DNA of 64,000 nucleotides from an uncultured Cytophagia bacterium (GCA_964436305.1 CAYTCI010000005.1:14629-78628), one strand, 5' to 3'; numbered from the stretch's first letter, positions 3,883 to 22,550 are shown. The notes: generated by a model from the sequence alone, not told the origin. Made by a program: numbers and translations.

Positions 3883-3910
3883 GGATACCTCGCTGGCTTG
3901 TTACCGTTCT

Positions 3911-3939: not shown

Positions 3940-3954
3940 GGAATTCTTCGCCGC

Positions 3955-4865: not shown

Positions 4866-4986
4866 CCCTCCCCCAAAAAAGGCTTGAATCCCACACAAAA
4901 TTGATGTATTCTATGCGGCAGCGCGGACTCCGACCGGTGGAGCCGATGCTGCAGCCGTGAAAAAGCTCAAGCCAACGGGAGCATGC

Positions 4987-6591: not shown

Positions 6592-6604
6592 GTAAGCCGC
6601 CTTC

Positions 6605-6625
6605 GGGTCGGCGCCAGAGTTCGAG
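6605..6625. repeat. Solitary copy of the 3955-4066 repeat core (GGGTCGGCGCCAGAGTTCGAG)
   Basis: Matches unit 4 of the tandem array (GGGTCGGCACCAGAGTTCGGG) at 19 of 21 positions. Lies 14 nt after the carboxylesterase stop. Flanks also share a TTTC..GCGCTGC tail with the array flank. Confidence 0.6.
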
Positions 6626-6676
6626 CCGCCGGGTCGCACGAGTTTCGCACGGCGCTGCGTTTAGACAATTTTTCGC

Positions 6677-6705
6677 TTGACATGAATGGAAAAATAGAGT
6701 ATCTT
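6677..6705 (+). promoter_or_regulatory. Candidate sigma70-type promoter (TTGACA-17-TATCTT) upstream of the LacI-family gene
   Basis: Perfect -35 TTGACA at 6677-6682, 17-nt spacer, TATCTT at 6700-6705. The operator palindrome starts 8 nt downstream. Confidence 0.45.
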
Positions 6706-6712
6706 ACAGAGG

Positions 6713-6730
6713 TGTCGAAACGTTTCGACA
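6713..6730. promoter_or_regulatory. LacI/GalR-type operator, perfect 18-bp palindrome TGTCGAAACGTTTCGACA
   Basis: Perfect dyad with a central CG and AAACG/CGTTT arms, as in LacI-family operators. Sits just downstream of the -10 and 76 nt upstream of the LacI-family start. A half-site CGTTTCGA recurs at 6799-6806, overlapping the ATG. Confidence 0.7.
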
Positions 6731-6805
6731 TATCACCATTACAGCGAGGCACCGACAAGATGTAATTTATTGATATTTGACGAATAAATAAAGAAAATCG
6801 TTTCG

Positions 6806-7810
6806 ATGAACGTGACCATTCGTGATGTCGCCCGGACGGCCGGGGTCGCGGTTTCCACCGTCTCCCTGGTCCTCAACCGCAAGGGCCGTGTCAGCCGCGA
6901 AACCGAGCGCAAGGTGCTCGATGCCATCGAAAAACTCCACTACCACCCGCAGCGCTCCGCACGCGGCCTCGTCACCCACCACAGCGGCAACCTCGGCTTC
7001 ATCCTCAGCACCGACCACTTTTCCAACGCCGAACCCTTTTACACCAAGATCTTCCTCGGCACCGAATTCGAAGCCCGCTCCCACGATTATTATGTCCTCC
7101 TGACCACCATCGAACAACAGTTTTCCGAAAAGCAGATCCCGCGATTTTTGCTGGAAAAGAATGTCGACGGCGTCATCCTCGCCGGCACCGTGCCCGGTAA
7201 AATCCTCGAGACCATCCGGGAGAGGGATCTCCCCTGCGTGCTGATCGATTATTATCCCCCCGTGGGCAATTATTCCTCGGTGCTGATCGACAATGCCGAC
7301 GGCATCCGCCAGGCCGTGACCCATCTCATCGGCAAGGGCCATCGCGACCTGCTCTTCGTCGGCGGCGATTTCCAGCATCCGGGCATGCGCGAGCGCCGGG
7401 AGGCCTTTTGCCGGACCATGGCCGATCATGGCCTTGCTGCCGGGGCGGAGCGTCTCTTCGCCGACGCCCTCCTCAGCGGCGCGCAGGAGGGGTTCGAGGC
7501 CGCGGTTCAGGCCCTCGAGAGCGGCATCAAGGCGACCGCCTTTGTTGCGGCCAACGATGCCCTCGCCAGCGGCATCCTGCGCGCCTGCCGCGACCGCAAG
7601 CTGCGCATCCCCGAGGATATCGCGATCACCGGCTTTGATGATGTCGAGACCGCCATCACCGCCCGACCGACCCTGACCACCCTGCATGTTCCCAAGGAGG
7701 AGATGGGCGCCCTGGCGGTACGTTTGCTCGTCCAGCTGATCGCCGGAACGGCATCCCCCGGCACCAAAATCGTCGTGCCGGTCCGGTTGGTCTGCCGGGA
7801 ATCGACCTGA
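6806..7810 (+). CDS. LacI-family transcriptional regulator
   Basis: N-terminal HTH MNVTIRDVARTAGVAVSTVSLVLN. The periplasmic-binding-fold remainder includes the AFVAANDALASGILRAC and ITGFDD motifs typical of the family. Confidence 0.9.
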   Translation: MNVTIRDVARTAGVAVSTVSLVLNRKGRVSRETERKVLDAIEKLHYHPQRSARGLVTHHSGNLGFILSTDHFSNAEPFYTKIFLGTEFEARSHDYYVLLTTIEQQFSEKQIPRFLLEKNVDGVILAGTVPGKILETIRERDLPCVLIDYYPPVGNYSSVLIDNADGIRQAVTHLIGKGHRDLLFVGGDFQHPGMRERREAFCRTMADHGLAAGAERLFADALLSGAQEGFEAAVQALESGIKATAFVAANDALASGILRACRDRKLRIPEDIAITGFDDVETAITARPTLTTLHVPKEEMGALAVRLLVQLIAGTASPGTKIVVPVRLVCREST

Positions 7811-8078
7811 CCGGCGGGCGGCGGCATCCGGAGCGCAGGTCGAGCCGGAGCAACCACGCCGCCGGTCCTTTGAATTATGCCATCGGGTGTAAAGACCCTG
7901 CAAGACGCAACGATAACCAACGAGAGGAGGTGAGACGGCCGGTATTCCGCCCGCAAGACGGAGTCAGGCCGGCAGTCCCGTATTTCCTGCACATCTGAAT
8001 TCATCCCTGCAACGGGCTCGCCTGGCTGGTTTAATGTATGCATTTGCTGCTTACCCTAATCAACCTGGAGGAGTAACC

Positions 8079-11000
8079 ATGACTCTGTGCAAACATGCCC
8101 TTTGGGGCGCATTGATCCTTGGCCTGATGCTGGCCCTGCAGCCCGCCCTCGCCCAGATCAATACGATCAGCAACGGCGATTTCGAGAACGCCGAACTCCC
8201 CGCCAACTGGTACAAGATCGATGCCAACGACGCGGAGGTCGCCTGGGCAACCGATCAGTTCCGCTCCCCGCAGCGCTCACTCAAGATCTCCGAGAGCGGC
8301 GGCGCTGATGCGCCAGCCTGGCAGTCGGCTAACATGGCCAAACTGGAATGGAATCCCACCACCGGCATTCCCGCCAACATCGAAATGGTGATCGGCGGCT
8401 GGGTCAAAACCGAAAATGTCAACGTCTCCCCCGCCGCACCGGCTTCCGAGATCACCCTCAGTTTCACCTTCTATGACAAGTCCAAAGCGATGATCTTCGG
8501 CCAACCGGTCACGATCCAGGTTCCCCAGAGCCAGGCCAGCGCCGGCTGGACGGAGATCAAGAACAGCGCCCCGGTCATTCTGCCGGTGGACGCCGACTCG
8601 ATGATCATCACCTTCGCTTTCGGCGCCAATGCCACCGGCACGGTCTGGCTTGATGATATTTTCATGAAGGTGGCGCCTGGCGCCAGCGGCTGGCTGGGCG
8701 ATCTCTACAATGCCAATTTCGGCGTGCCCGCGGGCTGGTTCTTCTGGAAGGACCGGATGAGTGAGGGCGAGCAGGATTACGGCACGGTCACCATCACCGA
8801 CCAGTATGCCCATCGCGGCCGCTACTCCCTGCTGATCGCCGATGATCCCGCCAATCCCGCTGAGGTGGTTGCGATCTCCGACCGCAACGCAGTCGAACCC
8901 GGCCGCTCCTATGGCCTCTCCGCATGGGTCAAGCTGGAGAATACCACCGTCAATCCCAAACGCGATATCGAGCAGGCGATCTTTTTCACCATCACCTACC
9001 ATTCCGCCGAGGCCGGATGGGCCGAGGTGGGTGGTGAGGATTTTGTCGTGGTCGACCAGTCCAAGGCAAACTCGGATTGGCGGCTCTACTCCTTTACCTT
9101 CAAGGTGCCCGACAATGCCTCGCGGATCTCGGTGCGCGCACGCATGCAGCACCAGGCGACCGGCAATACCTACTGGGATGATATCCGCATCTATCCCCTC
9201 GGGATTGCCAAGGCCAATCTCAACTTTGACGAATCCCAGCAGCCCGCCAACTGGTCCGGCTATGCCCACGGCGATGCGACTGTGGAATGGGCGACCGATG
9301 TCTGGCGTTCGGCCGAACGCTCGCTGAAGATCAGCAAGACGGCCGGCACAGCCGATCCTCTGTGGATCTCGGGCAATATGGCCAAGCTGCAGTGGAATCC
9401 GACCACCGGCACACCTGCCAACATCGAAATGGTGATCGGCGGTTACGTCAAAACGCAGAACGTCAATGTCAATCCCACAGCGGCGAACCAGGAGATCCAG
9501 CTGGCATTCTCCTTCTACGACAAGGACAAGAACCTGATCTTCGGCCAGCCGGTCGTGCTCAAGGCGCCGCAAGCCCAGGCCTCCAGCGACTGGACCGAGA
9601 TCAGGAACGAGGCGCCGATCGTCCTGCCGACCGATGCCGACTCCCTGGTCATCAGCTTCGGTTTCGGCGCGCAGGCCACCGGCACCGCCTGGCTTGATGA
9701 TATTTTCATGAAGGTGGCGCCCGGCGCCAGCGGCTGGCTCGGCGATCTCTACAATGCGAATTTCGGCGTGCCCGAGGGCTGGTTCTTCTGGAAGGGCGGT
9801 ATGTCGGAGGGCATCGGTGATGAAAAGGGCATCGTCACCATCACCAACAAATATGCCCACAGCGGCCTCTACTCCCTGCGCATCTCCGACAATGCCGCCA
9901 ACGGGGATGAGGTGGTGGCCATCTCCAACCGCGATCCGGTGCTGCCCGATACCGAGTATCTGGTCTCGGCCTGGGTCAAGCTGGAGGGAGCGACGGTCAA
10001 TACCACCAAGGATGTCGAAAAGTCGATCTTTTTCACCGTCACGTACCATTCCGACGAGGCCGGCTGGGCCGAGCAGCACGGATCGGACTTTTTCGTCGTC
10101 AACCAGAGCGCGGCCGACCGCGACTGGGCGCTCTACACCTTCCGCATCAGGACCGAGCCCCAGGACCGGCGCATCTCGATCCGCGCCCGGCTGCAGCACC
10201 AGGCGACCGGTGATGTCTACTGGGATGATTTCCAGGTGATGCCGATCGCCCAGGTGGCCAACGGCATGGGCTTCGAAGCCGATCTGCCCGCCTACTGGAC
10301 CAGGGTCAATGAGGGTGGATCGACCCTGGCCTGGACCAGCGACGTCGCGCGTTCACCGCAGCGCAGTCTGATGATCCAGAAGGGTTCGGGCAATGAAACC
10401 CCGGCCTGGCAAACCGACGCCAACATGGCCAAGCTGCAGTGGAATCCGACCACCGGCATTCCCCCCAACATCGAGATGGTGATCGGCGGCTGGGTCAAGA
10501 CCGAGAACGTCAACGTCAATCCGGCGACTGCTGACGGGGAGATCCACCTTGTCTACACCTTCTTCGACCAGAGCAAGGCGGTCATCTTCGGCCAGCCGGT
10601 CGTGCTCAAGATCCCGCAAGGCCAGGGCACCAGTGACTGGACCGAGATCAAGAACGATGCCCCCATCGTCCTGCCGGTTGATGCCGACTCGATGAGTATC
10701 CAGTTCATCTTTGGCCCTGCCGCCACCGGCACGGTCTGGCTGGATGATATCTTTATGAAGGTGGCCCCCGGGGCCAGCGGCTGGCTCGGCGATCTCTACA
10801 ACGCCAACTTCGGCGTCCCGGCGGGCTGGTTCTTCTGGAAGGACCGGATGAGCGAGGGCGAACAGGATTATGGCACCGTCAGCATCACCCGCGATGCCGC
10901 CCATACCGGCGACTACTCGCTGCTCCTCTCCGATGAAGCCGCCAATCCGGCCGAGGTGGTCGCCATCAGCGATCGCAATCCGATCCTGCCCAACCGGCTT

Positions 11001-11612
11001 TACACGGTGCAGGCCTGGGTCAAGACCGAGGGCGTGACCATCAACACCACCCAGGATGTCGAAAAGTCGGTCTTTTTCACCCTGACCTATCATACCAACG
11101 AGGCGGGCTGGGCGGAGGTAGGTGGCACCGATTTCTTCGTGGTCGACCAGAGTGTGGCGGACAAGGACTGGACCCTCTACACCTTCACCGTCGCACCGCC
11201 GGCCAACGCGACGAGGATGTCGATCCGGGCGCGCTTGCAGCATCAGGCCACCGGCAAGGTCTACTGGGATGATTTCGCGGTGGTCGAGGGCAATGTGACG
11301 CGGATTCCCGGCCAGCCGGATGCAACGCTGCCGGCGATTTATCGCCTCGCCCAGAACTATCCCAATCCCTTCAATCCCGAGACGCGGATCAGCTTCTCCC
11401 TGCCGAAGGAAGGCCGGGTCAAGCTGGCGGTCTATGATCTCCTCGGCAACCCCGTGCGCACCCTGATCTCGGCCAAAATGGCCGCGGGTGAACACCAGAT
11501 CCTCTGGGACGGGCGCGACGAGAGCAACCGGCCGGCCGCTTCCGGCATTTACTTCTATATCCTCGAAACCAAAGACGCACGCATGATGCGCAAGATGACC
11601 CTGGTAAAGTAA
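8079..11612 (+). CDS. T9SS-secreted surface protein: three tandem ~350-aa modules, each with two CBM4_9/22-like jelly-roll domains, plus a type-A C-terminal sorting domain
   Basis: ATG at 8079 with GGAGGAG 6 nt upstream and signal peptide ALILGLMLALQPALAQ. Each module begins NGxFE..W and ends YWDD. The C-terminus is YPNPFNPETRISFSLP...VYDLLGNPVRTL...GIYFYIL...KMTLVK. No catalytic motif recognised. Confidence 0.75.
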   Translation: MTLCKHALWGALILGLMLALQPALAQINTISNGDFENAELPANWYKIDANDAEVAWATDQFRSPQRSLKISESGGADAPAWQSANMAKLEWNPTTGIPANIEMVIGGWVKTENVNVSPAAPASEITLSFTFYDKSKAMIFGQPVTIQVPQSQASAGWTEIKNSAPVILPVDADSMIITFAFGANATGTVWLDDIFMKVAPGASGWLGDLYNANFGVPAGWFFWKDRMSEGEQDYGTVTITDQYAHRGRYSLLIADDPANPAEVVAISDRNAVEPGRSYGLSAWVKLENTTVNPKRDIEQAIFFTITYHSAEAGWAEVGGEDFVVVDQSKANSDWRLYSFTFKVPDNASRISVRARMQHQATGNTYWDDIRIYPLGIAKANLNFDESQQPANWSGYAHGDATVEWATDVWRSAERSLKISKTAGTADPLWISGNMAKLQWNPTTGTPANIEMVIGGYVKTQNVNVNPTAANQEIQLAFSFYDKDKNLIFGQPVVLKAPQAQASSDWTEIRNEAPIVLPTDADSLVISFGFGAQATGTAWLDDIFMKVAPGASGWLGDLYNANFGVPEGWFFWKGGMSEGIGDEKGIVTITNKYAHSGLYSLRISDNAANGDEVVAISNRDPVLPDTEYLVSAWVKLEGATVNTTKDVEKSIFFTVTYHSDEAGWAEQHGSDFFVVNQSAADRDWALYTFRIRTEPQDRRISIRARLQHQATGDVYWDDFQVMPIAQVANGMGFEADLPAYWTRVNEGGSTLAWTSDVARSPQRSLMIQKGSGNETPAWQTDANMAKLQWNPTTGIPPNIEMVIGGWVKTENVNVNPATADGEIHLVYTFFDQSKAVIFGQPVVLKIPQGQGTSDWTEIKNDAPIVLPVDADSMSIQFIFGPAATGTVWLDDIFMKVAPGASGWLGDLYNANFGVPAGWFFWKDRMSEGEQDYGTVSITRDAAHTGDYSLLLSDEAANPAEVVAISDRNPILPNRLYTVQAWVKTEGVTINTTQDVEKSVFFTLTYHTNEAGWAEVGGTDFFVVDQSVADKDWTLYTFTVAPPANATRMSIRARLQHQATGKVYWDDFAVVEGNVTRIPGQPDATLPAIYRLAQNYPNPFNPETRISFSLPKEGRVKLAVYDLLGNPVRTLISAKMAAGEHQILWDGRDESNRPAASGIYFYILETKDARMMRKMTLVK
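8172..11290 (+). repeat. Intragenic tandem triplication, period about 1.04-1.05 kb
   Basis: The same landmark (CTTGATGATATTTTCATGAAGGTGGCGCC...GGCGATCTCTACAATGC) recurs at 8647, 9697 and 10741. Copies 1 and 2 differ at only a few bases over more than 80 nt. Module boundaries are near 8172, 9219, 10261 and 11290. Confidence 0.85.
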
Positions 11613-11617
11613 AACCA

Positions 11618-11653
11618 CGTGTGCCACGCATCCATCCGGGTGCGTGGCACACG
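11618..11653 (+). terminator. Strong RNA hairpin (13-bp perfect stem, 10-nt loop) without a U-tract: partial terminator or processing/stability element
   Basis: CGTGTGCCACGCA (11618-11630), loop TCCATCCGGG, TGCGTGGCACACG (11641-11653). Begins 5 nt after the TAA of the repeat protein and ends 19 nt before the TonB-receptor ATG. No T-run follows it. Confidence 0.45.
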
Positions 11654-11672: not shown

Positions 11673-14387
11673 ATGCGACTTGAACCCGTTCTGAGACTGC
11701 TGGCCACGGCCTGTGCGCTGGCGGTGCCGCTGCTGGCCGGTACGACCGGAAAAATCGTCGGCCGCGCGTCGGATGCCGGAACCCGGGAGGGTTTGCCCGG
11801 CGTCAATGTCATCGTGGAGGGGACCAGCCTCGGCGCCGTCACCGATCTCGAAGGCCAGTACCTGATCCTGCGGGTGCCGCCCGGGATTTATTCCCTGCGC
11901 GCCAAGGTGCTCGGCTATACTGAAATGACCTACGACCGGGTGCAGGTCTCGATCGACAAGACAACCACCGTCGATTTTAGCCTCTCGCAAACTGTGCTGC
12001 AGACCGGCCAGACCATCACGGTCACTGCCACCAAGCCGCTGGTTGAGCGCGACCTCACCTCCACAGTCGCCACCGTCAATTCCGAGATCATCGGCCGCCT
12101 GCCGGTCGACAACATGCAGGATGTCATCAATCTGCAAGCCGGCGTAGTTGACGGTCACTTTCGCGGCGGCCGCAGCGGCGAGGTCGGCTACCTCATCGAC
12201 GGCATCTCGATCAACGATGTCTATTCCGGCAGCTCTGCCGTCCAGGTGGAGAATACCGCCGTGCAGGAGCTGCAGGTGATCAGCGGCACCTTCAATGCCG
12301 AATATGGCCAGGCCATGTCCGGCATCGTCAACGTGGTCACCAAGGAGGGTGGCGACTCTTACCACGGCTCCCTCACCAGCTATGTCGGGGATTATGTCAG
12401 CGCGCACACCGACATCTTCTGGAACGTTGACGCTTTCAATCCGATCACCAACCTCGAGGGCACCCTGAGCGGGCCGGTCCCCGCCCTGCACAACCGTCTG
12501 ACCTTCTTCGCCTCCGGCCGCTTTTATGACAACGAGGGGGCGATCAACGGACGGCGGATCTTTCTCCCCTCCGACTCGGCCAACTTTCCCAGCAGCGATG
12601 TGCGCGACTGGTACATCGAGTCGCACGGCCAGGGCCGCCGCTTCACCTCGCAGCAGGATTTCAGCCACTATGCTGACAGTCTCAGGCAGAGCGCCGATTA
12701 TGTCGCCATGCGCCCGAGCCGGCGCTATACCGGGCAGATCAAGTTGGCCTGGAAGCTCTCGGATGCCAACAAGCTCGAATACGAGGGGCTGGTGCAGCGG
12801 CAGAAATACCGCGAATACGACCATCAGTTCCGATACGATCCGGACGGCGATTTCTGGCGCCATCAGCTCGGCTGGAACAACGGCCTGACCTGGACTTCGG
12901 TGGTGAACCAGCGCAACTTTTTCACCGTCAAAATGGCGCGCTTTTACACCGACTACAAGCAGTATGTCTATGCGGATCCCTACGACACGCGCTATGTCAA
13001 TCCCAAGCTGCTCGACGCGGCCAGCGGCAATGCCTTCCTCACCGGCGGCCAGCAGATGTGGCATTTCCTGCGCAACACCACCACCAGCGTCGGCAAGGTC
13101 GATTTCACCTCGCAGGCGACCAACGAGCACCAGCTCAAGCTGGGCCTCGAGTATCGCCAGCACCGCATGTGGCTGCGTTCCTTCGAGATCCGCCTCAACC
13201 GCGACACCCAGTGGAAGCCCCATGTCCCTTCAGTGACGAAGAACGTCCAGAACAACGATGAGTACCTCCTCCGTCCCCTCGAGGTGTCGGCCTATGTGCA
13301 GGACAAGATCGAGCTGGCCTACATGGTCGTCAATGCAGGGGTGCGCTATGATTATTTCCGGTCGGATGGGGTGGTGCCGCTCGATTTTCTCCAGCCCGCC
13401 GCCTCGCCGCTGCGCACACCCAAAATCAGCCAGCAGCTCAGTCCGCGTTTCGGCCTTTCGTATCCCATCACCGACCGCGGCGCGATCCATATCTCCTACG
13501 GCCATTTCTTCCAGATCCCCAATTTCGAATTCCTCTTCTCCAATCCCGATTTCGAGCTCTATGCCACCGCCGACTATGGCAGCACCTCGCCACCCGAGCG
13601 GGTGCCCAACACCATCGGCAACGCCGAGCTCAAGCCGCAAAAGACCACCATCTATGAGATCGGCCTGCAGCAGCAGCTGGGTGCGGATCTCTCCCTGGAA
13701 GTGACCGCCTACTTCAAGGATATCCGCAATCTGCTCGGCACCGAGATCCTCCACACCACCACCGGCATCCGGTATGCGCGTTTTATCAACCGGGATTACG
13801 GCGGGGTCAAGGGCTTGACCTTTGCCTTTGAGAAGCGGCTGACCGGGGGATTCGGCGCGACCATCGATTACACCTATCAGATCGCGCGCGGGGATGCCTC
13901 CGACCCGGCCTCCGCCTTTCTCGATGCAGAAGCGGGACGCGAACCGCAGAAGCAGCTGGTGCCGCTCAACTGGGACCGCACCCACAGCCTCAATCTCTCC
14001 CTCACGGCCGGGGATGCCCGGGTCTGGTCCGTCAGTCTGATCGGCCGTCTTGGCAGCGGGCTGCCTTATACCCCGACCCAGCAAAATGTGCGCACCGCGG
14101 TGGAGAACAGCGAACGCAAGCCCGCCTTCAGCAATTTTGATTTCTACGCCTACCGTAATTTCAGGGTGGGTGGCCAGAATCTCAATCTCTTTGTCCGGAT
14201 CTACAACCTGCTGGATCAGAAGAACGAGCTGGACGTTTACAGCGATACCGGACGCGCCAATTACACCCTCACGGCGCAGAATTCGGGGACGATCTTCGGC
14301 GTCAACAGCCTCGCCGACTATCTCGCCCGTCCCAACTTTTATTCCGATCCGCGGCAGATCCTGGCGGGTATCGGTCTGGAATTCTGA
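11673..14387 (+). CDS. TonB-dependent outer-membrane receptor with N-terminal carboxypeptidase-regulatory-like domain
   Basis: Signal peptide, then GKIVGRASDAGTREGLPGVNVIVEGT...GIYSLRAKVLGY (CarboxypepD_reg-like). Plug region TVNSEIIGRLPVDNMQDVINLQAGV. Long beta-barrel ending in the terminal aromatic ...GIGLEF. Confidence 0.9.
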   Translation: MRLEPVLRLLATACALAVPLLAGTTGKIVGRASDAGTREGLPGVNVIVEGTSLGAVTDLEGQYLILRVPPGIYSLRAKVLGYTEMTYDRVQVSIDKTTTVDFSLSQTVLQTGQTITVTATKPLVERDLTSTVATVNSEIIGRLPVDNMQDVINLQAGVVDGHFRGGRSGEVGYLIDGISINDVYSGSSAVQVENTAVQELQVISGTFNAEYGQAMSGIVNVVTKEGGDSYHGSLTSYVGDYVSAHTDIFWNVDAFNPITNLEGTLSGPVPALHNRLTFFASGRFYDNEGAINGRRIFLPSDSANFPSSDVRDWYIESHGQGRRFTSQQDFSHYADSLRQSADYVAMRPSRRYTGQIKLAWKLSDANKLEYEGLVQRQKYREYDHQFRYDPDGDFWRHQLGWNNGLTWTSVVNQRNFFTVKMARFYTDYKQYVYADPYDTRYVNPKLLDAASGNAFLTGGQQMWHFLRNTTTSVGKVDFTSQATNEHQLKLGLEYRQHRMWLRSFEIRLNRDTQWKPHVPSVTKNVQNNDEYLLRPLEVSAYVQDKIELAYMVVNAGVRYDYFRSDGVVPLDFLQPAASPLRTPKISQQLSPRFGLSYPITDRGAIHISYGHFFQIPNFEFLFSNPDFELYATADYGSTSPPERVPNTIGNAELKPQKTTIYEIGLQQQLGADLSLEVTAYFKDIRNLLGTEILHTTTGIRYARFINRDYGGVKGLTFAFEKRLTGGFGATIDYTYQIARGDASDPASAFLDAEAGREPQKQLVPLNWDRTHSLNLSLTAGDARVWSVSLIGRLGSGLPYTPTQQNVRTAVENSERKPAFSNFDFYAYRNFRVGGQNLNLFVRIYNLLDQKNELDVYSDTGRANYTLTAQNSGTIFGVNSLADYLARPNFYSDPRQILAGIGLEF

Positions 14388-14410
14388 CCCAAAACGAGAA
14401 AGTGGTGAGT

Positions 14411-17400
14411 ATGAATCGCCTGAAACTCCTCTGCTGCCTGGTCTTGGCCGTTGCGCTGCAGCCCCTCCAGGCGCAGCGCAAGCCCGATCCGCATGTCGGT
14501 GCCCTGGCCAATACGCGCTGGGGCACGATGGACGGCAATGTGGTGCGCACGGTCTTTGCCAACCACGGCGAGATCGCCAACTGGGATGAGCCCGCCTGGC
14601 CCTCCGGCGAGTGGCCCAAGGGCAGCGGCCATACCTACGTCGATGGCGTCGCCCTCATCGTCGCAACCCCCATCGTCGATATTCACGGCAAGCGGTATCA
14701 CGACATCGTCACCCGTTATCGTGAGGATATGTCGACCTCGGCGGAGGGGATCCCCTGGGGCTTTGCCCCCCTGCCGGGCTATTTCAATCCGGATGTCAAG
14801 ACCAATATCCACAATTATCCGGCGATGAGCAATGATCCGACCACCTGGCCCTCCACCTGGCCCGATCAGAACCCGGAGTGGGACGGCCAGTGGAACGGCT
14901 TTTTCGGCCGCGGCAAGACCAACGCCGATCTCGAAACCTATATGGTTTTCGACGACGATCCGGACGAAAAATATCTCTATTACCCCGACCCGGCGGACTC
15001 GTCGCGTCGCGGGCTGGGCATCGAGGTGGCCTCCCGCCTCTTTCAGTGGAACCAGGTGCTCGCCCAGGACTGCCTCTTTTCGATCTATTTCATCACCAAC
15101 GAGGGCAAGAAGGATTACGACAGCACCTATTTCGCCTTCCACATCGACTGGGGCATCGGCGGTCATGATGACTCCGCCGATGATGCCGGCAGCTATGACC
15201 TCGACCTCGACATCGCCTGGGCCTTCGACGGCAATGGCTATGGCAGTCCCAACAACTGGGCGCCCGTCGGCGTGGCCGGCTTCGCCTTCCTCGAGAGCCC
15301 CGGCATCTTTCGCGACAGCCGCGACAACGACCATGACGGTCTGATCAACGAGCGGCGTGACAGCGGGCCCGGGGTTTTCCTCACCACCGCTCCCTACGGG
15401 GTCGATGATCTCAAGGCCTTCCAGGACTTTTATCCCGATCGCGAGATCCGGCCGCACTGGTCCGGGGATGAGAACATCAACTGGGATTCCTATTCGGATC
15501 TGAATGCCAACGGCCAGTGGGACGAAGGCGAGCCCCTGAATGATGATCTCGGCGCCGACGGCCTCGATCCCAACGATAACAACTATCCGGGTCCCGATGC
15601 AGGCGAGGGCGACGGTATGCCTACCGCCGGCGAACCCGATTTCGATTTTCTCGACAAGGACGAGTCCGACCAGATCGGTCTGACCGGCTTTCAGGTCTTT
15701 GTGCTGCACGAATACAAGATGGAGAATGACGAGGCCTACTGGAATGGCCTGAAATCGGCGCCACCGCCGCGCGAAAAGCTGGTGCAGAACACCAATCTGG
15801 GCATGTTCTTCAGTTCCGGACCCTTCGGACTCAAGGCGGGCGATACCCAGTTCTACTCGATGTCGCTCCTCTTCGGCGAGGACCAGGCCCAGCTCGCCCG
15901 TGAGAAAAAGACCGTGCAGCAGATCTACAACGCCACCTACCAGTTCGCCCGGCCCCCGGACAAGTCGCGTCTGACCGCTGTGCCCGGAGATCACAAGGTG
16001 GTACTTTACTGGGATGACACCGCCGAAAAATCGTGGGATCCCTTCCTGCAGGCGCACGATTTCGAGGGCTACCGCATCTATCGCACCACCGACGCGGAAT
16101 TCTCCGAGGCCCAGGTCATCACCGATTCCTACGGCAAGGCGCGCTTCCGCAAGTACATCGCCGAATTCGATGTCAAGAATGGCATCAAGGGACTGCATCC
16201 GATCGACATCGAGGGGATCAAATTCGACCTGGGCGAGGACACCGGTCTGCGCCACTACTTTGTCGATACCGATGTCGAAAACGGCCAGACCTACTACTAC
16301 GCGCTAGTCCCCTACGACCGCGGTCTGACGACCGTCACCTCGACCGGCGAAGTCTCCGGCATCTCACCCTCCGAGGCCTCCAGCGTCATCCGTGTCAGCG
16401 CCGCCGGCGTGGTCGAGTATGTCGATATCAACTGCGCCGTGATCACCCCGCGCGCGCCCGCCGCGGGCTACCAGGCGCCGCAGCTGGCGGGCGGACTGGA
16501 ACACCAGGGTCCCGGCACCGGCCTGCTCGAGGTGGAACTGCTCGACGCCAATGTCCTGCAGGACAACGCCTCCTATGACGTGGTCTTTCACGACACCTCC
16601 GCCTTCGCCCTCAACCGCCGCGCGACCTTTGACTGCAACAATACCACCTCGCAGACCCTGCTGCTTGAAGCAGCGCAGATGGAGGAAGGCCTCGCCACCT
16701 CGCCGGTGCTGGAAGGGCTGGTGCTCCACGTCAACGGCGACACCGCCTGTCAGGTGATCGAGAGCGAGACCGGCTGGGTCAAGGGCAGTCACTCCTGGCT
16801 CTTTCGCGTCGGCAAGAATGCCAGTTTGAGCGGGCGTTTCGTCCCCTATCCTGCCGATTTCGAGATGACCTTTTATGATCACATCGTCGACACCTCGCAG
16901 GCCCTCCTCTTCGGCCAGCAGGCGATCGCTGTGCCCTTTATGATCTACAACACCACCGAAGCGCGGGTGATGGATTTTCTCTTCGGCGACAAGGACAAGG
17001 ACGGCCAGTTCTCGCCCGGAGACTCGGTCACCATCGTCACTGGGGTGCGCCTAGGCGAGCCGCTGCCGACCCCCAAATCCCGTTTCAAGGTGGCCTGGAC
17101 TTTCTTTTACGACCAGGCTGCCGGAGGTAATAACCGGCCGGCCGCCGGCGATATCTTTCGCATCCGCACCACCAAGCCCTTCCGCGACGGCGAGACCTTT
17201 CGTTTTACCGTCCAGGGCGCACGCACCAGCGCCAGCCTGGCGAAGGAGGGCATGGCCGCAATCACGGTGGTCCCCAATCCCTACGTCGCCGCCGCCAGCT
17301 GGGAGCCGCGCAATCCCTTCCGCTTCGGCCGTGGCGAGCGCCGTATCTTTTTCAACCATTTGCCCGCCCGCTGCACCATCCGCATCTATACGGTGCGCGG

Positions 17401-17566
17401 CTATCTGGTCAATACCATCGAGCACGACAGCAGCCTCGACGATGGTTCCGAGAGCTGGGACCTGGTCTCCAAGGACGGGATGGACATCGCCTACGGCATC
17501 TACCTGTTCCAGGTCGATGCCCCCGGCATCGGCACCCATATCGATAAATTCGCAGTCATTAAATGA
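14411..17566 (+). CDS. Large secreted protein of unknown function with Asp-rich Ca-binding-like segment and a divergent T9SS/FlgD-Ig-like C-terminal domain
   Basis: ATG at 14411 with signal LLCCLVLAVALQPLQAQ. DxDxDG motif DNDHDGLINERRD and acidic stretch DLNANGQWDEGEPLNDDLGADGLDPNDNNYPGPDAGEGDG. C-terminus VVPNPYV...RRIFFNHLP..IRIYTVRGYLV...GIYLFQV...FAVIK. No catalytic signature recognised. Confidence 0.8.
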   Translation: MNRLKLLCCLVLAVALQPLQAQRKPDPHVGALANTRWGTMDGNVVRTVFANHGEIANWDEPAWPSGEWPKGSGHTYVDGVALIVATPIVDIHGKRYHDIVTRYREDMSTSAEGIPWGFAPLPGYFNPDVKTNIHNYPAMSNDPTTWPSTWPDQNPEWDGQWNGFFGRGKTNADLETYMVFDDDPDEKYLYYPDPADSSRRGLGIEVASRLFQWNQVLAQDCLFSIYFITNEGKKDYDSTYFAFHIDWGIGGHDDSADDAGSYDLDLDIAWAFDGNGYGSPNNWAPVGVAGFAFLESPGIFRDSRDNDHDGLINERRDSGPGVFLTTAPYGVDDLKAFQDFYPDREIRPHWSGDENINWDSYSDLNANGQWDEGEPLNDDLGADGLDPNDNNYPGPDAGEGDGMPTAGEPDFDFLDKDESDQIGLTGFQVFVLHEYKMENDEAYWNGLKSAPPPREKLVQNTNLGMFFSSGPFGLKAGDTQFYSMSLLFGEDQAQLAREKKTVQQIYNATYQFARPPDKSRLTAVPGDHKVVLYWDDTAEKSWDPFLQAHDFEGYRIYRTTDAEFSEAQVITDSYGKARFRKYIAEFDVKNGIKGLHPIDIEGIKFDLGEDTGLRHYFVDTDVENGQTYYYALVPYDRGLTTVTSTGEVSGISPSEASSVIRVSAAGVVEYVDINCAVITPRAPAAGYQAPQLAGGLEHQGPGTGLLEVELLDANVLQDNASYDVVFHDTSAFALNRRATFDCNNTTSQTLLLEAAQMEEGLATSPVLEGLVLHVNGDTACQVIESETGWVKGSHSWLFRVGKNASLSGRFVPYPADFEMTFYDHIVDTSQALLFGQQAIAVPFMIYNTTEARVMDFLFGDKDKDGQFSPGDSVTIVTGVRLGEPLPTPKSRFKVAWTFFYDQAAGGNNRPAAGDIFRIRTTKPFRDGETFRFTVQGARTSASLAKEGMAAITVVPNPYVAAASWEPRNPFRFGRGERRIFFNHLPARCTIRIYTVRGYLVNTIEHDSSLDDGSESWDLVSKDGMDIAYGIYLFQVDAPGIGTHIDKFAVIK

Positions 17567-17596
17567 ACTGCACCTGAACTTTTTATGGAATCGCTT

Positions 17597-18610
17597 ATGA
17601 AAAAGATCGTCATGATGGCCTATCTGCTGCTGACGGCTGCGGGGCTTCTCGCCGGGGATGTCGCCAAGGTCGGCGTCACCGCCGCCCCTTTCCTTTCGAT
17701 CGGCGTCGGCGCCCGGGCGACCGGCATGGGCGGCGCCTTCGTCGGCACCGCCGACGATGCCAGCGCCCTCTACTGGAATCCCGCCGGCATCGCCCGCAGC
17801 CGGGATATCCAGGTGCTGCTGATGCATACCCGTTGGCTCGCGGATCTGAAATTCAATTTCGCCGGCTTTTCCCTGCCCCTCGGCGGCTTCGGCAGTATCG
17901 GAGCCTCGTTGACCTCGCTCGACTATGGCGATATGCCGGTGCGTACCACCGACCAGCCCGACGGGACCGGCGAGATCTTTTCTTCCAGCGATCTTGCCAT
18001 CGGCCTCAGCTATGCCCGCAGTCTGACCGACCGCTTCTCGATCGGCTTCAACGTCAAATACATCACCCAGAGTATCTGGCATGAGAATGCCGATGGTTTT
18101 GCCATTGATTTCGGCACCCTCTTCATCACCGGACTGTACGGTCTGCGCATCGGCGCCGCATTGAGCAACTTCGGCACCGACATGCACATGGGAGGCAAGG
18201 ATCTCCTCGTCTATCAGGACATCGATCCCAACATCCTCGGCAACAACGACCGGATTCCGGCGGATCTGCAGACCGGTTCGTGGTCGCTGCCGCTGACCTT
18301 TCAGTTCGGCCTGGCGCTGGAGCCCTGGAAGTCGCCGCTGCACCGGCTGACGGTCGCGGCTGACGCCATCCATCCCAGCGACAACACCGAATCGATCAAT
18401 CTCGGTATGGAGTACGGTTTCCGCGAGATACTCTTCCTCCGTGCCGGCTTTCGCGATCTCTTTTTGCGCGACCGCGAGCAGGGTCTCACCCTGGGGGCGG
18501 GCTTGGCCACCCGCAACCTCGGCAATATCCTGATCCAGCTCGACTATGCCTACGCCGATTTCGGCCGTCTCGAGAACGCCCAGCGGTTTTCCTTCAGCAT
18601 GGCTTTTTGA
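17597..18610 (+). CDS. PorV/PorQ-family outer-membrane beta-barrel protein (T9SS-associated)
   Basis: Signal peptide, then the family-typical N-terminal motif PFLSIGVGARATGMGGAFVGTADDASALYWNPAGIA. About 340 aa of alternating beta-strand pattern ending ..RFSFSMAF. Confidence 0.7.
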   Translation: MKKIVMMAYLLLTAAGLLAGDVAKVGVTAAPFLSIGVGARATGMGGAFVGTADDASALYWNPAGIARSRDIQVLLMHTRWLADLKFNFAGFSLPLGGFGSIGASLTSLDYGDMPVRTTDQPDGTGEIFSSSDLAIGLSYARSLTDRFSIGFNVKYITQSIWHENADGFAIDFGTLFITGLYGLRIGAALSNFGTDMHMGGKDLLVYQDIDPNILGNNDRIPADLQTGSWSLPLTFQFGLALEPWKSPLHRLTVAADAIHPSDNTESINLGMEYGFREILFLRAGFRDLFLRDREQGLTLGAGLATRNLGNILIQLDYAYADFGRLENAQRFSFSMAF

Positions 18611-18618: not shown

Positions 18619-18726
18619 ATGGAGGCCATCGTCATTGAACAACCCGAGGCCGCACAGCTTCGGCGGCTTCCCGAGCCGGAGCCGGGGGCCGGCGAGGCCC
18701 TCGGCAAGGTGCAGGTTCTCCTGTGA
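18619..18726 (+). pseudogene. 35-codon relic resembling the N-terminus of a medium-chain (Zn) alcohol/threonine dehydrogenase
   Basis: MEAIVIEQPEAAQLRRLPEPEPGAGEALGKVQVLL* mirrors the canonical MDR GroES-like start (MKA.v...pg.l.l.evp.PepgpgEvLvkV.a.g). It then stops and overlaps the GTG of the next gene. No SD seen. Confidence 0.35.
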
Positions 18727-21236
18727 TCCGCGCATGCGCAAACCGTCTGGCCGTGGCCGGCCTGCTCCTGACCAGTCTGCTGGCCGCCTGCACGGCCGGC
18801 AACAAGGCTGATCCGCTGCAAGAGCTGGCGGTCGTTTTTACGGAAAATCACGGTCAGCTGGAGGTCGGCGGCCCCTGGGCCGGCGCCGAGTTTCACGCCA
18901 GCCGGCCGCTGCCCGCCCGGATCAGCTTTTATTATCCCGTGGCCAACAGCATCGATCTCAGCACCGACTACTGGCGCCGCGGCGAATCGCGGCCGCTGCG
19001 CTTTGCCCTCAGCCATGATGGCCGCACCGATTCTATCGGCGCCGCACCCTGGGCCTATCGCTACACCCCCTTTCGTGCCGAGTTCCAGCAGCAAATCCCG
19101 GAATACCGCTGTGCCCTCCGCTACCGTTTTTGCCGGACGCTTCCGGTGATGGCCCTGCAGCTCGAGCTGACCAATGCCGGGGACCGGACGCGCTCCTTCC
19201 TCCTCGAGGGTTCCCTGCAGTGGGTGCTGCGCACCTGCCAGACCTATGCCTGGAAACTGCCGACGGTGGTTGCCTGCCCGCCGCAAAACCCCGCCGATCC
19301 CGGCAGTGGCTGTCCTCTGGCCACCGCCGCCTTCACCTGCCCCGAGACCGATTCGGCCCTGGTCTTCGTCGCCAATGCCGGGGCGCTGCCAGCGGCCTGG
19401 GCAACCCGCGAGGCCCTCACTCTCCGCTATGAAAAAACCTTGCAGCCGGATGAGGTGTGGCAGATCACCCTCCTGCTCGGCTCCTGCCGACCGGCCGAAG
19501 CGGCGGAGGTGGCGGCCAGGGCGATGCGGGAATGGCAGGACGAGGCAGATGGGTATGAGGAGGAGGCGCGGGACTATGCTGTGGCCGGCCCCGGGCTGGA
19601 GTTGCCCGATGCCAGACTTGTACAAACCGCGCGCTGGTCGCGGGCGGTAATGGCGGCCAACCGCCATTATCTCGACGGCCGGATGGTGCCCATGCCCTGT
19701 CCGGCGGAATACAATTTCTTTTTCACCCACGATCTGCTGCTGACCGACCTCGGGGCGGTCTTTTTCGACAGCGAGCGTGTGCGCAGCGACCTGCTCTATC
19801 TGCAGAGTCTGGCCCGGGCCGATTCAATCCTGCCACACGCTTACTACTGGCGCGACAGCGGTTTTCAGACCGAGTTCTGTTCCACCGACAACTGGAATCA
19901 TCTCTGGTTCATCCTCCTGAGCGCCTCCTACCTGCGCCACAGCGGCGATGCCGCCACCGTACAGCGGCTGGCGCCGATGCTGGAGAAGAGCCTGCGCATG
20001 ATGCTCGAGAACCGCGGCGAGGATGACCTGATGTACGCCTGGCAGCCCGACTGGTGGGACATCGGTCACTCCTGGGGTGCGCGCAGCTACATCACCATCC
20101 TCACGATCCGCGCCCTGCGCGAATATGCCTTCATGGGCGGGCAGCTGGGGTGGCCGGAGGTGGAGCTTGCGCACCAACTCGCGCTGGCGGAGCGGCTGCA
20201 GCAACGCCTCGGCGAGCGGCTGTGGGACGAGCAGGCCGGTTATCTTTTCAACGGGCTGGCGGGCGGCGCCACCGACCGCCATTATTACGCCGGCTCGCTG
20301 CTGGCCGCCGCCTGGAGGATCCTGGACGAGGAGCGCTCCGCCCGGCTGATGCAGACCGCTGCCGCGGAACTGCTCGACCGCCGCATCGGCATCCGCATCG
20401 CCGCGCCGATGGATTTCGACCAGTACAATCAACTCTACGAATTCCTCCCTGGCGAGGTCGGCGCCCGCGGCCTCTACCTCAACGGCGGGATCTGGCCGCA
20501 CGGCATCGTCTGGTACGCCCTCGGCTGGCTGGCCGCGGCCCAGCCCGATTCAGCCCGCGAGGTGCTGCAGCGCTATCTCACCCTGGCGGGCATCAGCCGT
20601 TCACCCCTGGGCCAGCCGGCCTTCTTCGAATACCGCAACGCCGATCCCGCCTCGCCGCGCTATGGCGAGATCGACAAGCCCACCTTCCTCTGGGCCGGCG
20701 GCTGGTTCCTGCACGCCCTCTATCAGCTGGCCGGGATGCGCGAGAACGAATGGAACCTCGCCTTTGATCCCCGGCTGCCGCAGGGCTGGCGGACCCTCCG
20801 TTACCAGACGATGATCAGCGGGCATGCCGTCGACGTGGTTTGGCGCGGCGAAGGGACCTGGTTCCGCCGGATCGAGGCGGATGGCCAACCCTTGCCCACT
20901 GCGGTCATGCCCGTTGATACCACCGCTTTGCCGCGGCACCAGCTCGCGCTCGAACGCGGCGAGCCGCTTACCCCCTACCTCGCCGGCGCCACCTGCGCGG
21001 TGACGGCGGTGCGCCTCGATGCACGCGAGCGGCGGCTGCAGGTGGCCCTCCGCGGCCAGCCCGGGCAGCGGGTCGAGCTGTCCGTGGTATCGCCCTGGGA
21101 GCCGCTGCGGGAGGGGCGGACGGAGGAGGAGCTGACGATCGTCCACCGGGACCGGGTGTGGGTGATCCGGCTCAGATCCGTGCTTGGCCAGCAGGAGGAG
21201 CTGGTCCATCTTGGCTTCAGCGGTGGAGGAGAGTAG
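18723..21236 (+). CDS. Lipoprotein with C-terminal six-hairpin (alpha/alpha)6 glycosidase-like domain (GDE_C/GH63-like fold)
   Basis: GTG start and lipobox LLTSLLAAC. C-terminal half has the helical-repeat pattern NWNHLWFILLSASYL, ITILTIRAL, YLNGGIWPHGIVWYALGWL, typical of clan GH-G type barrels. Family not assignable by eye. Confidence 0.65.
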   Translation: MIRACANRLAVAGLLLTSLLAACTAGNKADPLQELAVVFTENHGQLEVGGPWAGAEFHASRPLPARISFYYPVANSIDLSTDYWRRGESRPLRFALSHDGRTDSIGAAPWAYRYTPFRAEFQQQIPEYRCALRYRFCRTLPVMALQLELTNAGDRTRSFLLEGSLQWVLRTCQTYAWKLPTVVACPPQNPADPGSGCPLATAAFTCPETDSALVFVANAGALPAAWATREALTLRYEKTLQPDEVWQITLLLGSCRPAEAAEVAARAMREWQDEADGYEEEARDYAVAGPGLELPDARLVQTARWSRAVMAANRHYLDGRMVPMPCPAEYNFFFTHDLLLTDLGAVFFDSERVRSDLLYLQSLARADSILPHAYYWRDSGFQTEFCSTDNWNHLWFILLSASYLRHSGDAATVQRLAPMLEKSLRMMLENRGEDDLMYAWQPDWWDIGHSWGARSYITILTIRALREYAFMGGQLGWPEVELAHQLALAERLQQRLGERLWDEQAGYLFNGLAGGATDRHYYAGSLLAAAWRILDEERSARLMQTAAAELLDRRIGIRIAAPMDFDQYNQLYEFLPGEVGARGLYLNGGIWPHGIVWYALGWLAAAQPDSAREVLQRYLTLAGISRSPLGQPAFFEYRNADPASPRYGEIDKPTFLWAGGWFLHALYQLAGMRENEWNLAFDPRLPQGWRTLRYQTMISGHAVDVVWRGEGTWFRRIEADGQPLPTAVMPVDTTALPRHQLALERGEPLTPYLAGATCAVTAVRLDARERRLQVALRGQPGQRVELSVVSPWEPLREGRTEEELTIVHRDRVWVIRLRSVLGQQEELVHLGFSGGGE

Positions 21237-21242: not shown

Positions 21243-22550
21243 ATGATCAAAACGGATTGCAGATTGGCTCTGACCGCCGCCGTGGTCGTTCTCATGGCGG
21301 CGCTGATGCTGGCCGGCTGCCGGGGCGGGCCGCACGGCAAGAGCGGGCCTGAGGGGCTGGTCTACTGGCCGGCGGCCAACGCCCAGGAGATCGAGCTGGC
21401 CCGGAGCGCCGCGGCGGAATGGAATGCGGCCCATCCGGAGGTGCCGGTGACTGTGCAGCCGATCCCCGAGAGCCAGTCGACCGAGGAGGTGCTGCTGGCG
21501 GCGGTGGTCGGCAAGACCACCCCGGATGTCTGCTCGAACATCTGGCCGGGGGTGGTCGGTCAGTTCGTGCGCGCGGGAGCACTGGTGGCGCTCGATTCCT
21601 TCGCCGATTTCGACTCGGTTGCCACGGCGCGGCTGCCGGAGGGGCAGCGCGAGGCCTTTCAGTACGATGACGGCCGCCTCTACCAGATGCCCTGGAAGAG
21701 CAATCCGATCATGATGGAATACAACGTCCGGCGTCTGCGCGAGGCGGGTTTCGACCATCCACCGGCCACCTATGCCGAATTCATCCGTGCCGGTCAGGCC
21801 CTGACTCGGGATGTGACCGGCGATGGCCAGCCCGACCAGTGGATGCTCTACGTCGACATCAACGTCAAATGGTGGCTGCGCTACTTTGATTTTTACACCT
21901 TTTATCTGGCCGCCTCCGGAGGGCAGACCCTGATCCGCAACCGCCAGGTCGTTTTTGATAATCCGGCCGCGGTCGAGGTCTTTCGCTTCTTCCGCCGCTG
22001 TTTCGAACTGGGCATCTTCCCCAAGGCCACCTTTCAGGGCGATACTTTTCTCGCCGGGCAGGTGGCCACCCACATCACCGGCCCGTGGAACATCGCCCAC
22101 GTCGACAAGTTCAAGCCGGCGGGATTTGAATTCGATTATGCCCCGGTGCCGCTGCCGGACAGCGCCGCGGGGCCGGTGGTGACCTACGGCGATCCCAAGA
22201 ACATCGCCATCTTCACCACCTGCAGGAATCCCCGCGCGGCGTGGGCATTCGTCAAATTCCTGGTCTCCCGCCGCCAGGACCTGGCGCTGCTGCGGATCGC
22301 CAGTCAGCTGCCGATCCGCCGGGATCTCCTGACCGATTCGCTCTACATGCCTTACTTTAACGAGAATCCCAAGATGGTGCACTTTGCCGAACAAGCCCCG
22401 CGGACCCGCGGCGTCGACTCCGCCCCCGAACTGCGCGAGGTCTTCGATGCCCTCTCGCAAGAGTTCGAGGCCTGCTGCGTGCTCGGCCGGAGGACCCCCG
22501 AGGAGGCGGTGCGCCGCGCCGCCGAACGGGCGCGACAGGTGCTGCGATGA
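21243..22550 (+). CDS. Sugar ABC transporter substrate-binding lipoprotein (family 1 SBP)
   Basis: Lipobox LMLAGC. About 435 aa, with a typical SBP_bac_1-like layout (VTVQPIPESQSTEEVLLAAVVGKTTPDV, YQMPWKSNPIMMEYN). Immediately upstream of two MalFG-type permeases. Confidence 0.85.
   Translation: MIKTDCRLALTAAVVVLMAALMLAGCRGGPHGKSGPEGLVYWPAANAQEIELARSAAAEWNAAHPEVPVTVQPIPESQSTEEVLLAAVVGKTTPDVCSNIWPGVVGQFVRAGALVALDSFADFDSVATARLPEGQREAFQYDDGRLYQMPWKSNPIMMEYNVRRLREAGFDHPPATYAEFIRAGQALTRDVTGDGQPDQWMLYVDINVKWWLRYFDFYTFYLAASGGQTLIRNRQVVFDNPAAVEVFRFFRRCFELGIFPKATFQGDTFLAGQVATHITGPWNIAHVDKFKPAGFEFDYAPVPLPDSAAGPVVTYGDPKNIAIFTTCRNPRAAWAFVKFLVSRRQDLALLRIASQLPIRRDLLTDSLYMPYFNENPKMVHFAEQAPRTRGVDSAPELREVFDALSQEFEACCVLGRRTPEEAVRRAAERARQVLR

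Follow-up and report, generated by a model that had tools for sequence, protein, structure and literature searches.

We analysed a 64,000-nt stretch of DNA from an uncultured Cytophagia bacterium, hereafter the window, in which three consecutive plus-strand genes (11673-18610, within a run of genes on that strand, about 62% GC) encode a TonB-dependent transporter (TBDT), a large secreted protein that we call X, and an outer-membrane barrel of the PorV/PorQ family. Sequence comparison supports this trio well as a conserved module, a widespread and apparently undescribed one in relatives of the Bacteroidota, while the mechanism that we propose for it is hypothetical. To that mechanism we give an even chance: the three proteins would form one outer-membrane uptake module, in which X, delivered by the secretion system of type IX (T9SS), is held beside the TBDT by its own PorV-like barrel through a retained C-terminal sorting domain (CTD).

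The argument starts from gene order. Twenty loci from reference genomes (L001-L020) were compared, together with 11 fetched for diverse members of the X family. The order TBDT-X-barrel is intact in all 17 reference loci where the contig allows it to be read, three truncated loci are consistent with it, and all 11 further loci contain the trio, which makes 28 of 28 complete loci, the barrel being present in every one. Among the sources that carry a label are KSB1, Kryptoniota, Calditrichia, Fidelibacterota and Roseithermus, so that the three genes are conserved neighbours, as the initial annotation had anticipated, in several differently labelled lineages of the Fibrobacterota-Chlorobiota-Bacteroidota (FCB) group. 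Because it recurs in every related locus examined, the order is not ascribed to chance. Where gaps exist between the genes they are short, and overlaps of a few bases are frequent (L023, L028 and L030 are examples). In the window, 23 nt (14388-14410) lie between TBDT and X, and 18 nt between X and the barrel; of the gaps of 23 and 30 nt given by the initial annotation the first stands, and the second holds only if the barrel begins at the alternative ATG 17597. A promoter/terminator scan gave no terminator-like site in either gap, as expected from the earlier remark that no hairpin lies inside the trio; such sites were otherwise commoner than in shuffled sequence (28 versus 11.4), and the sigma-70 promoter count was not above that of shuffled sequence. 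Invariant order, tight spacing and deep conservation together lead us to conclude that the three proteins work together. Among 390 family proteins there is no fusion of X with the barrel or with the TBDT, and a mirror-tree comparison had no discriminating power, the identities of the three proteins all tracking phylogeny equally.

The transporter itself is clearly recognised. Pfam finds the N-domain (CarbopepD_reg_2, E 2.5e-14) and the plug (PF07715, 25.5 bits for a cutoff of 23.9) that had been described earlier, and the barrel as well (TonB_dep_Rec, PF00593, 106.8 bits for a cutoff of 27), which identifies the protein as a TonB-dependent transporter. Against the SusC/RagA model TIGR04056 it reaches 39.5 bits for a cutoff of 368.25, with only the N-terminal part aligned (best stretch, residues 28-153), and it has no relative among PDB sequences. 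It thus shares the domain order of SusC, yet judged by these models it is not a member of the SusC/RagA family. No SusD partner was detected either: a Pfam scan of the 38 window open reading frames (ORFs) of at least 200 aa, which left aside opposite-strand ORFs inside recognised genes, gave no SusD/RagB match at E <= 0.001, in agreement with the earlier statement that the 64 kb contain none, and no SusD appears in the gene tables or scanned ORFs of the related loci L018-L032. The adjacent SusD/RagB lipoprotein gene that defines a SusC/SusD-type polysaccharide utilization locus (PUL) was therefore not found in the window. We also considered X as a SusD homologue, and rejected this since X is all-beta and without helices of the tetratricopeptide repeat (TPR) type.

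The barrel matches the PorV/PorQ family model NF033709 over its full length (residues 32-341) with 234.3 bits for a cutoff of 90, and a PDB search retrieves F. johnsoniae PorV (6h3i_F, E 1.2e-13), than which it is about 60 residues shorter. It remains below the equivalog cutoffs of PorV (NF033710, 83.8 versus 250 bits), PorQ (NF033711, 99.2 versus 220) and PorV2 (NF052325, 99.7 versus 325), and below the gathering threshold of the FadL/TodX family (Toluene_X, PF03349, 17.1 versus 29.7). On this basis it is a genuine PorV homologue, as the initial annotation proposed, whose PorV/PorQ membership holds at the subfamily level only; a FadL-type identity, which would have spoken against that annotation, is not found, and an identity as the housekeeping PorV is rejected on the equivalog score.

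Protein X most likely starts at ATG 14411, which gives 1051 aa; this start is preferred because a database copy (P0001, 100% identity) has this length. The 1054 aa announced earlier correspond to the alternative GTG 14402 and are less likely; the protein, described there as secreted, has a signal peptide. Searched alone, as 37 separate homologues and as a 37-sequence profile, X has no match in Pfam and none among PDB sequences, and in NCBIfam a single one, to the PorZ tail (E 0.037), so that profile searches place it in no characterised enzyme family, as had been suspected. The family to which it belongs is large: more than 2147 matches in a 90%-clustered database, and 4507 representatives at E <= 1e-3, 641 of them at E <= 1e-30, in a library clustered at 50% identity, nearly all named "hypothetical". 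Relatives with a taxon label come from KSB1, Calditrichota, Ignavibacteriales, metagenome-assembled genomes labelled "Bacteroidota", Kryptoniota, Rhodothermaceae and Fidelibacterota/Marinimicrobia. One homologue (P0289) is labelled 'Candidatus Odinarchaeota archaeon' at NCBI, and probably stems from a misbinned bacterial contig. Two loci whose X is 71% identical to that of the window (L004, L005) are, like it, labelled 'uncultured Cytophagia bacterium', a label that looks doubtful, because, of the remaining labelled relatives with at least that identity, P0014 and P0030 are KSB1 and L007 is a named candidate species.

An indication for an anchoring role of the barrel comes from the CTD of X. 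The initial annotation had noted a sorting domain, and its type-A landmarks are indeed present (PNPY, CTIRIYTVRGYLV, GIYLF and a terminal K). X itself gives no TIGR04183 or PF18962 match at E <= 0.1; hhalign aligns its CTD with the five ordinary CTDs of the window with a probability of 83% over 52 columns, and PorZ and PorU are among its structure matches. Some relatives have precomputed matches to PF18962 or PF13585, or are named 'T9SS type A sorting domain' by NCBI. The insertion that follows PNPY (residues 959-976) is conserved and predicted to be disordered, with a predicted local confidence score (pLDDT) below 50. Within X the CTD is the most conserved segment, with 72% identity in the close group and 43% in the distant one, as against 67% and 23% for the N-domain. 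The cargo protein with carbohydrate-binding modules (CBMs) encoded in the same loci served as a control and has the opposite pattern, its CTD being 53-58% identical and its body 61-70%. In a 1051-aa protein one would not expect an export signal of the ordinary kind to be conserved better than all other parts, and this conservation therefore points to a conserved binding partner; it fits a dedicated anchor, i.e. the barrel. PorZ and PorU retain their CTD, by which each is bound to a cognate barrel of the PorV family (PorQ and PorV, respectively) that serves as surface anchor, and it was suggested that such barrels protect these CTDs from cleavage (PMC10202324). Taken together, the CTD pattern and the ever-adjacent PorV paralogue support, at the sequence level, the tethering of X to the barrel. 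Five relatives (P0173, P0201, P0237, P0264 and P0351) combine an X-type N-domain with an ordinary type-A CTD, and are a possible natural control for the CTD-barrel pairing; the only context obtained, that of P0351 (L032), has no TBDT upstream, a single case.

X as a whole is all-beta. In the N-terminal domain, W146, P147 and W150 are invariant in a 36-sequence alignment and P151 nearly so (at least 90%). The DxDxDG motif and Asp-rich stretch pointed out by the initial annotation are found (D305-N-D307-H-D309-G310, then about 353-420), with those Asp and Gly positions invariant in 37 homologues, and these loops are probably calcium-binding, as far as the motif tells; the region is weakly conserved in the distant subfamily and gapped in a paralogue (L028). 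A fibronectin type III (FN3)-like domain, which has fibronectin-type structure matches, keeps 38% identity even in the distant subfamily, with L532, W534, F551, G553, Y554 and Y628/Y630 invariant. The region between this domain and the CTD falls to 40% identity in the close group and 18% in the distant one. Part of it, residues 739-963, is 26% identical (E 5e-14) to the segment preceding the CTD (about 535-760) of an esterase T9SS cargo encoded at 41419-43920, and may represent a 'stalk' module shared among T9SS cargos of this organism.

Two AlphaFold2 (AF2) models were built. The full-length one, from 37 close homologues, is good only for residues 670-950 and the CTD and poor for the first 660, and Foldseek returned for it generic FN3-chain, PorZ and PorU matches only (TM below 0.2). 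The second, of residues 24-520, made use of an 80-sequence alignment covering both subfamilies (pLDDT 80, pTM 0.79), and matched GH94, GH149, GH161, GH116 and GH15-like enzymes of the glycoside hydrolase (GH) classes with probability 1.0, TMq of about 0.35 and 6-9% identity. As the X model is nearly all-beta, with almost no helices and without a catalytic (alpha/alpha)6 domain, we take the match to be to the N-terminal, non-catalytic beta-supersandwich of these enzymes. X lacks the catalytic (alpha/alpha)6 barrel of a GH94-type phosphorylase and has no sequence match to one, the likeness being at the fold level only. A supersandwich fold with calcium-type loops is compatible, in the model, with carbohydrate binding.

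How could such a module work? In Bacteroidia, the extracellular partner of a TBDT is a lipoprotein such as SusD, RagB or BtuG. In the proposed trio, the TBDT would be the TonB-energised channel; X would be exported by Sec to the periplasm and then by the T9SS over the outer membrane, where its CTD would stay uncleaved on the PorV/PorQ-family barrel encoded next to it. The barrel would thus tether X at the surface beside the TBDT, as PorQ holds PorZ and PorV holds PorU, and X would be the extracellular partner of the transporter, a ligand-binding platform or a lid. In the window, the trio would be the import core of a LacI-controlled locus for beta-mannoside glycans, probably importing sugars in place of a SusC/SusD pair. 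Outside the cell, CBM proteins anchored through the T9SS would attach to the polymer; the trio would take oligosaccharides into the periplasm, and an ABC system would move them to the cytoplasm, to be split by GH130 and a GH94-like enzyme. From sequence we infer the physical complex, the retention of the CTD (argued from conservation), the role of X and the substrate; for capture or a SusD-like lid function, the only functional hint is the weak fold match, in a model, to a non-catalytic N-domain of carbohydrate enzymes. An uptake core is supported by the T9SS binding proteins or enzymes, regulators and inner-membrane importers found near trios, and by the presence of two TBDT-X pairs on one contig. 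X could serve at the surface as a lid, as a platform for ligand binding, as a scaffold or as an enzyme.

The trio occurs in three kinds of context. The first, with a LacI gene, a T9SS CTD protein, the trio, an ABC importer and GH130, is that of the window, L001-L017, L021, L025 (Calditrichia) and L026; among these orthologous glycan loci X is 50-94% identical. In the second, paralogous trios sit in other catabolic surroundings, beside T9SS-secreted enzymes. In L018 (KSB1; 134-11427), the trio is directly followed by a T9SS enzyme with CBM30 and PF10091 ('putative glucoamylase'), a family that we take to cover GH144 beta-1,2-glucanases; here the glycan context of the core would be another one. 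In L020 (1450-14500), where X has 1175 aa, the flanking genes encode an FG-GAP T9SS protein, a T9SS Amidase_2 (N-acetylmuramoyl-L-alanine amidase) and a NamZ exo-muramidase, and the Amidase_2 after the barrel and the adjoining NamZ suggest, by their annotation, a version devoted to the scavenging of peptidoglycan fragments. In the third, the trio stands alone among housekeeping genes: this holds for 8 of the 11 contexts with full gene tables (L022, L023 from Fidelibacterota, L024 and L027-L031), plus Roseithermus (L019). There X is the only CTD protein, and the barrel is still kept. One such locus, L028 (1-14373), has two head-to-head TBDT-X pairs on one contig, the second X being 22% identical to that of the window and without the Asp-rich insert. 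A module specific to glycan loci is thereby rejected. The initial annotation spoke of an undescribed PUL architecture: full-text literature searches indeed returned no description of the trio, and a review of bacterial glycoside transporters of September 2026 mentions neither T9SS, PorV, Ignavibacteria nor Rhodothermia, but the stand-alone trios show that the architecture is not confined to glycan loci. From the existence of trios that stand alone, and from the strong conservation of X, we argue that X is mainly constrained by protein-protein contacts rather than by one ligand.

Several observations weigh against the uptake module as proposed. The conservation of X equals or exceeds that of the TBDT, whereas SusD and surface glycan-binding proteins generally diverge fast; a structural or an enzymatic role may lie behind this. 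The many stand-alone trios imply that the module is not a glycan system by its nature, and it may be that X does not bind glycans. Within the window, the 1192-aa CBM_4_9 protein encoded upstream of the TBDT qualifies for the capture of glycans at least as well as X, and T9SS core genes and a housekeeping porV are not seen. The N-domain match is weak (see the TMq and identity values above). Finally, X has invariant or nearly invariant acidic residues (E67, E175, D182, D254, D273, E295), which, from the alignment, could be catalytic.

These residues lead to the first of three other scenarios, in which X, anchored at the surface, would be an enzyme of a new family (e.g. an endo-glycanase or a lyase) that cuts polymers beside the transporter, the TBDT importing the products and the barrel only anchoring or shuttling X. 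Its N-domain has a fold otherwise known from carbohydrate-active enzymes, conserved aromatic residues and calcium-type loops accompany the acidic ones, and the window locus has no recognised secreted endo-enzyme, its CBM_4_9 and CBM96 cargos being without a recognised catalytic domain. However, the matched fold is read as that of a non-catalytic N-domain, X has almost no helices and no (alpha/alpha)6 domain, and it matches no enzyme family in Pfam, NCBIfam or PDB sequences. Moreover, L018 and L020 have their own secreted enzymes beside the trio, and the stand-alone trios have no carbohydrate context. We therefore consider an enzymatic X unlikely.

The stand-alone loci recall a second scenario, a module for envelope biogenesis, secretion or the surface layer, with a TBDT that acts in export in the manner of Myxococcus Oar with PopC, or with a structural surface protein X that needs the two barrels for its assembly. 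In L027 (433-14080), the trio lies directly 3' of sprA (2180 aa) and 5' of an M14 peptidase gene, and in L019 it adjoins TPR, DUF4292 and M23 genes; X is unusually conserved for a surface protein; and Oar-type TBDTs also have a CarboxypepD_reg N-domain (PMC6434023). The link to sprA is nevertheless found in 1 of 31 loci, and the best-conserved clade sits in regulated catabolic loci with LacI, ABC importer and GH130 genes. Other trios adjoin secreted degradative enzymes, and the two TBDT-X pairs of L028, together with related clades in varied catabolic contexts, resemble substrate-specific uptake, so that we tend to set this scenario aside as quite improbable.

Lastly, that there is no dedicated complex at all, the barrel being a general PorV-type shuttle or FadL-type channel and X an ordinary T9SS cargo co-transcribed with the TBDT for regulation, is in our view very unlikely: PorV is indeed a general shuttle in characterised T9SS (PMC10202324), the barrel is weakly similar to Toluene_X and the loci hold other CTD cargos also in need of a shuttle, but stand-alone trios keep the barrel for a single CTD protein, the barrel falls short of the PorV equivalog cutoff and is shorter than F. 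johnsoniae PorV, the gene order is invariant over deep divergence, and the CTD of X is far more constrained than an ordinary signal.

The features of the trio and of its surroundings are collected in Table 1.

Table 1. Coordinates of the trio, of the regions of X, and of neighbouring features in the window
Feature	Position	Strand	Remarks
TBDT	11673-14387	+	904 aa; CarboxypepD_reg-like N-domain, plug, barrel; always directly 5' of X
Protein X	14411-17566	+	1051 aa; all-beta, with Sec signal peptide; first member of a family lacking annotation
X residues 1-22			Signal peptide (Sec)
X residues 25-300	14483-15310	+	Beta-supersandwich with invariant WPxxWP motif; AF2 pLDDT ~90
X residues 301-425	15311-15685	+	DxDxDG and Asp-rich loops; low model confidence
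X residues 516-660	15956-16390	+	FN3-like domain, well conserved family-wide
X residues 661-945	16391-17245	+	Most variable region, beta-sandwich stalk; pLDDT 83-92
X residues 950-1051	17258-17563	+	Divergent type-A T9SS CTD with ~18-aa insertion
PorV/PorQ-family outer-membrane barrel	17585-18610	+	341 aa; called dedicated paralogue; always directly 3' of X
LacI-family regulator	6806-7810	+	Pfam LacI, Peripla_BP_1, Peripla_BP_3
T9SS cargo, 1192 aa	8034-11612	+	CBM_4_9, 3 stretches, E 2e-25; ordinary type-A CTD, TIGR04183 29.4 bits versus 23
Hairpin, 16-bp, GC-rich	11618-11653	+	Between CBM-gene stop and TBDT-gene start
Remote GH94/GH65-like (alpha/alpha)6 enzyme	18723-21236	+	Weak Pfam match; cellobiose phosphorylase E 7e-5; syntenic in several loci
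ABC sugar importer	21243-24240	+	Solute-binding protein (SBP_bac_1/8), two permeases (BPD_transp_1); syntenic
YPO2471-like protein, 452 aa	24237-25595	+	7tem_A E 2e-59; no Pfam match
T9SS cargo, 1176 aa	25606-29136	+	CBM96, FlgD_ig; CTD similar to that of the CBM_4_9 protein
PpiC-type rotamase-like protein	29167-30525	+	Rotamase_2 E 1.8e-5, 26.0 bits, just under the 27-bit cutoff
GH130 beta-mannoside phosphorylase-like enzyme	30512-31513	+	PF04041 E 8e-63; syntenic in L021, L025 and L026

The LacI regulator and the CBM-repeat protein that the initial annotation placed upstream of the trio were both recovered by Pfam. The former is syntenic in L001-L003, L005-L007, L012, L015, L017, L021, L025 and L026. 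The latter is syntenic 5' of the TBDT in glycan-type loci, and from its domains is a candidate surface glycan-binding protein. The strong hairpin that separates its gene from the trio has counterparts at the same position, of variant sequence in L001, L002 and L006 and of unrelated sequence in L003 and L012, in some cases with a T-run behind. The ratio of surface-binding protein to trio expression may be set by this hairpin, acting as a partial terminator or as an RNA-processing site. Downstream, the GH130 enzyme matches TM1225, UhgbMP and beta-1,2- and beta-1,4-mannoside phosphorylases (E 1e-47 to 1e-65). Because these are its nearest relatives, and because two GH38, GH5, GH3 and DUF4185 genes are also present, the substrate of the locus, as deduced from gene content, is probably a beta-mannoside-containing glycan.

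Other neighbours deserve mention. The 452-aa protein is a clear homologue of Yersinia YPO2471, a 'putative exported protein' (structure 7tem_A), and in L025 the corresponding place ahead of GH130 is taken by a 438-aa protein without annotation. The pairing of a large T9SS CTD protein with a PpiC/Rotamase_2-like gene recurs, at 25606-30525 in the window and at 14324-18896 in L026. The remainder of the window (31523-63902) is rich in carbohydrate-active and T9SS genes, including the two GH38, the GH5 and the DUF4185 genes, GH109, a ROK kinase, esterases, a polysaccharide lyase (PL1) with CBM6/35 and a CTD, and an M28 peptidase with a CTD, the GH3 gene lying at 150-2462; it may be a mannan- or N-glycan-oriented island.

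Among known systems, the closest by function are SusC/SusD-type pairs and other TBDTs with a surface partner. As in SusC/SusD and RagA/RagB, a TBDT with a CarboxypepD_reg-like N-domain, a plug and a barrel is encoded beside a large partner, which for X would be extracellular as well. As with SusC/SusD, the loci can be regulated and contain surface glycan-binding proteins, degradative enzymes and inner-membrane importers, and the module appears to be reused for different substrates. The differences are that X is a 1051-aa all-beta T9SS substrate and not a TPR-like lipoprotein of about 550 aa, that a third gene, for the PorV-like barrel, is always present, that the TBDT scores far below the SusC/RagA cutoff, and that the trio is found in labelled lineages outside Bacteroidia and also alone, outside catabolic loci; the function as a lid is presumed for X. 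In BtuB-BtuG of Bacteroides and TbpA-TbpB of Neisseria, a surface protein captures the ligand and passes it on to the TonB-dependent barrel of a neighbouring gene. BtuG and TbpB are lipid-anchored lipoproteins, whereas the anchor proposed for X is a separate barrel and its export route the T9SS.

For the X-barrel pair, the closest systems are PorZ-PorQ and PorU-PorV, and also those of the SprB-SprF/PorP type, in which a CTD protein has a cognate PorV-family barrel; the genes for X and its barrel are always adjacent. Outside the CTD, X is unrelated to PorZ, PorU and SprB, its barrel lies below the PorQ and PorV equivalog cutoffs, and the pair is coupled to a TBDT gene. Retention of the CTD is described for PorZ-PorQ, and suggested for X by conservation. 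The TBDT-based carbohydrate utilisation (CUT) loci of Xanthomonas and marine Gammaproteobacteria resemble the window locus in having a TBDT, a LacI-type regulator, an inner-membrane transporter and glycoside hydrolases but no SusD (PMC1790865; PMC13543919); the T9SS, an X-like partner and a PorV-like barrel are lacking there. The N-terminal supersandwich of GH94, GH149, GH161 and GH116 enzymes is related to residues 24-520 of X by fold only, and X is not a member of these families.

A broader reading, which we put forward tentatively as possible rather than favoured, is that FCB lineages outside Bacteroidia possess an ancient alternative to SusC/SusD that had escaped notice. A TBDT with an all-beta T9SS lid or platform of about 1000 aa, permanently tethered through its uncleaved CTD to a dedicated PorV-like barrel, would make up a 'T9SS-tethered utilisome core' of three proteins, and would have diversified into many paralogues specific for beta-mannosides, beta-glucans, peptidoglycan fragments and unknown housekeeping substrates.

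For the FCB group, TonB-dependent capture of glycans is at present modelled on SusC/SusD pairs and surface lipoproteins. If the proposed uptake module is real, a second widespread architecture would exist, in which the T9SS supplies the surface partner of the transporter and a PorV paralogue anchors it, tying protein secretion directly to nutrient import. It would give a role to a large unannotated family of proteins of about 1000 aa (the 4507 clusters found at 50% identity) and to "extra" PorV/PorQ paralogues, and would improve the prediction of PULs in genomes of KSB1, Calditrichota, Ignavibacteria, Rhodothermia and Fidelibacterota, in which detection by way of SusD yields nothing. The cultured organism Roseithermus sacchariphilus carries a stand-alone trio, so the module is testable there.

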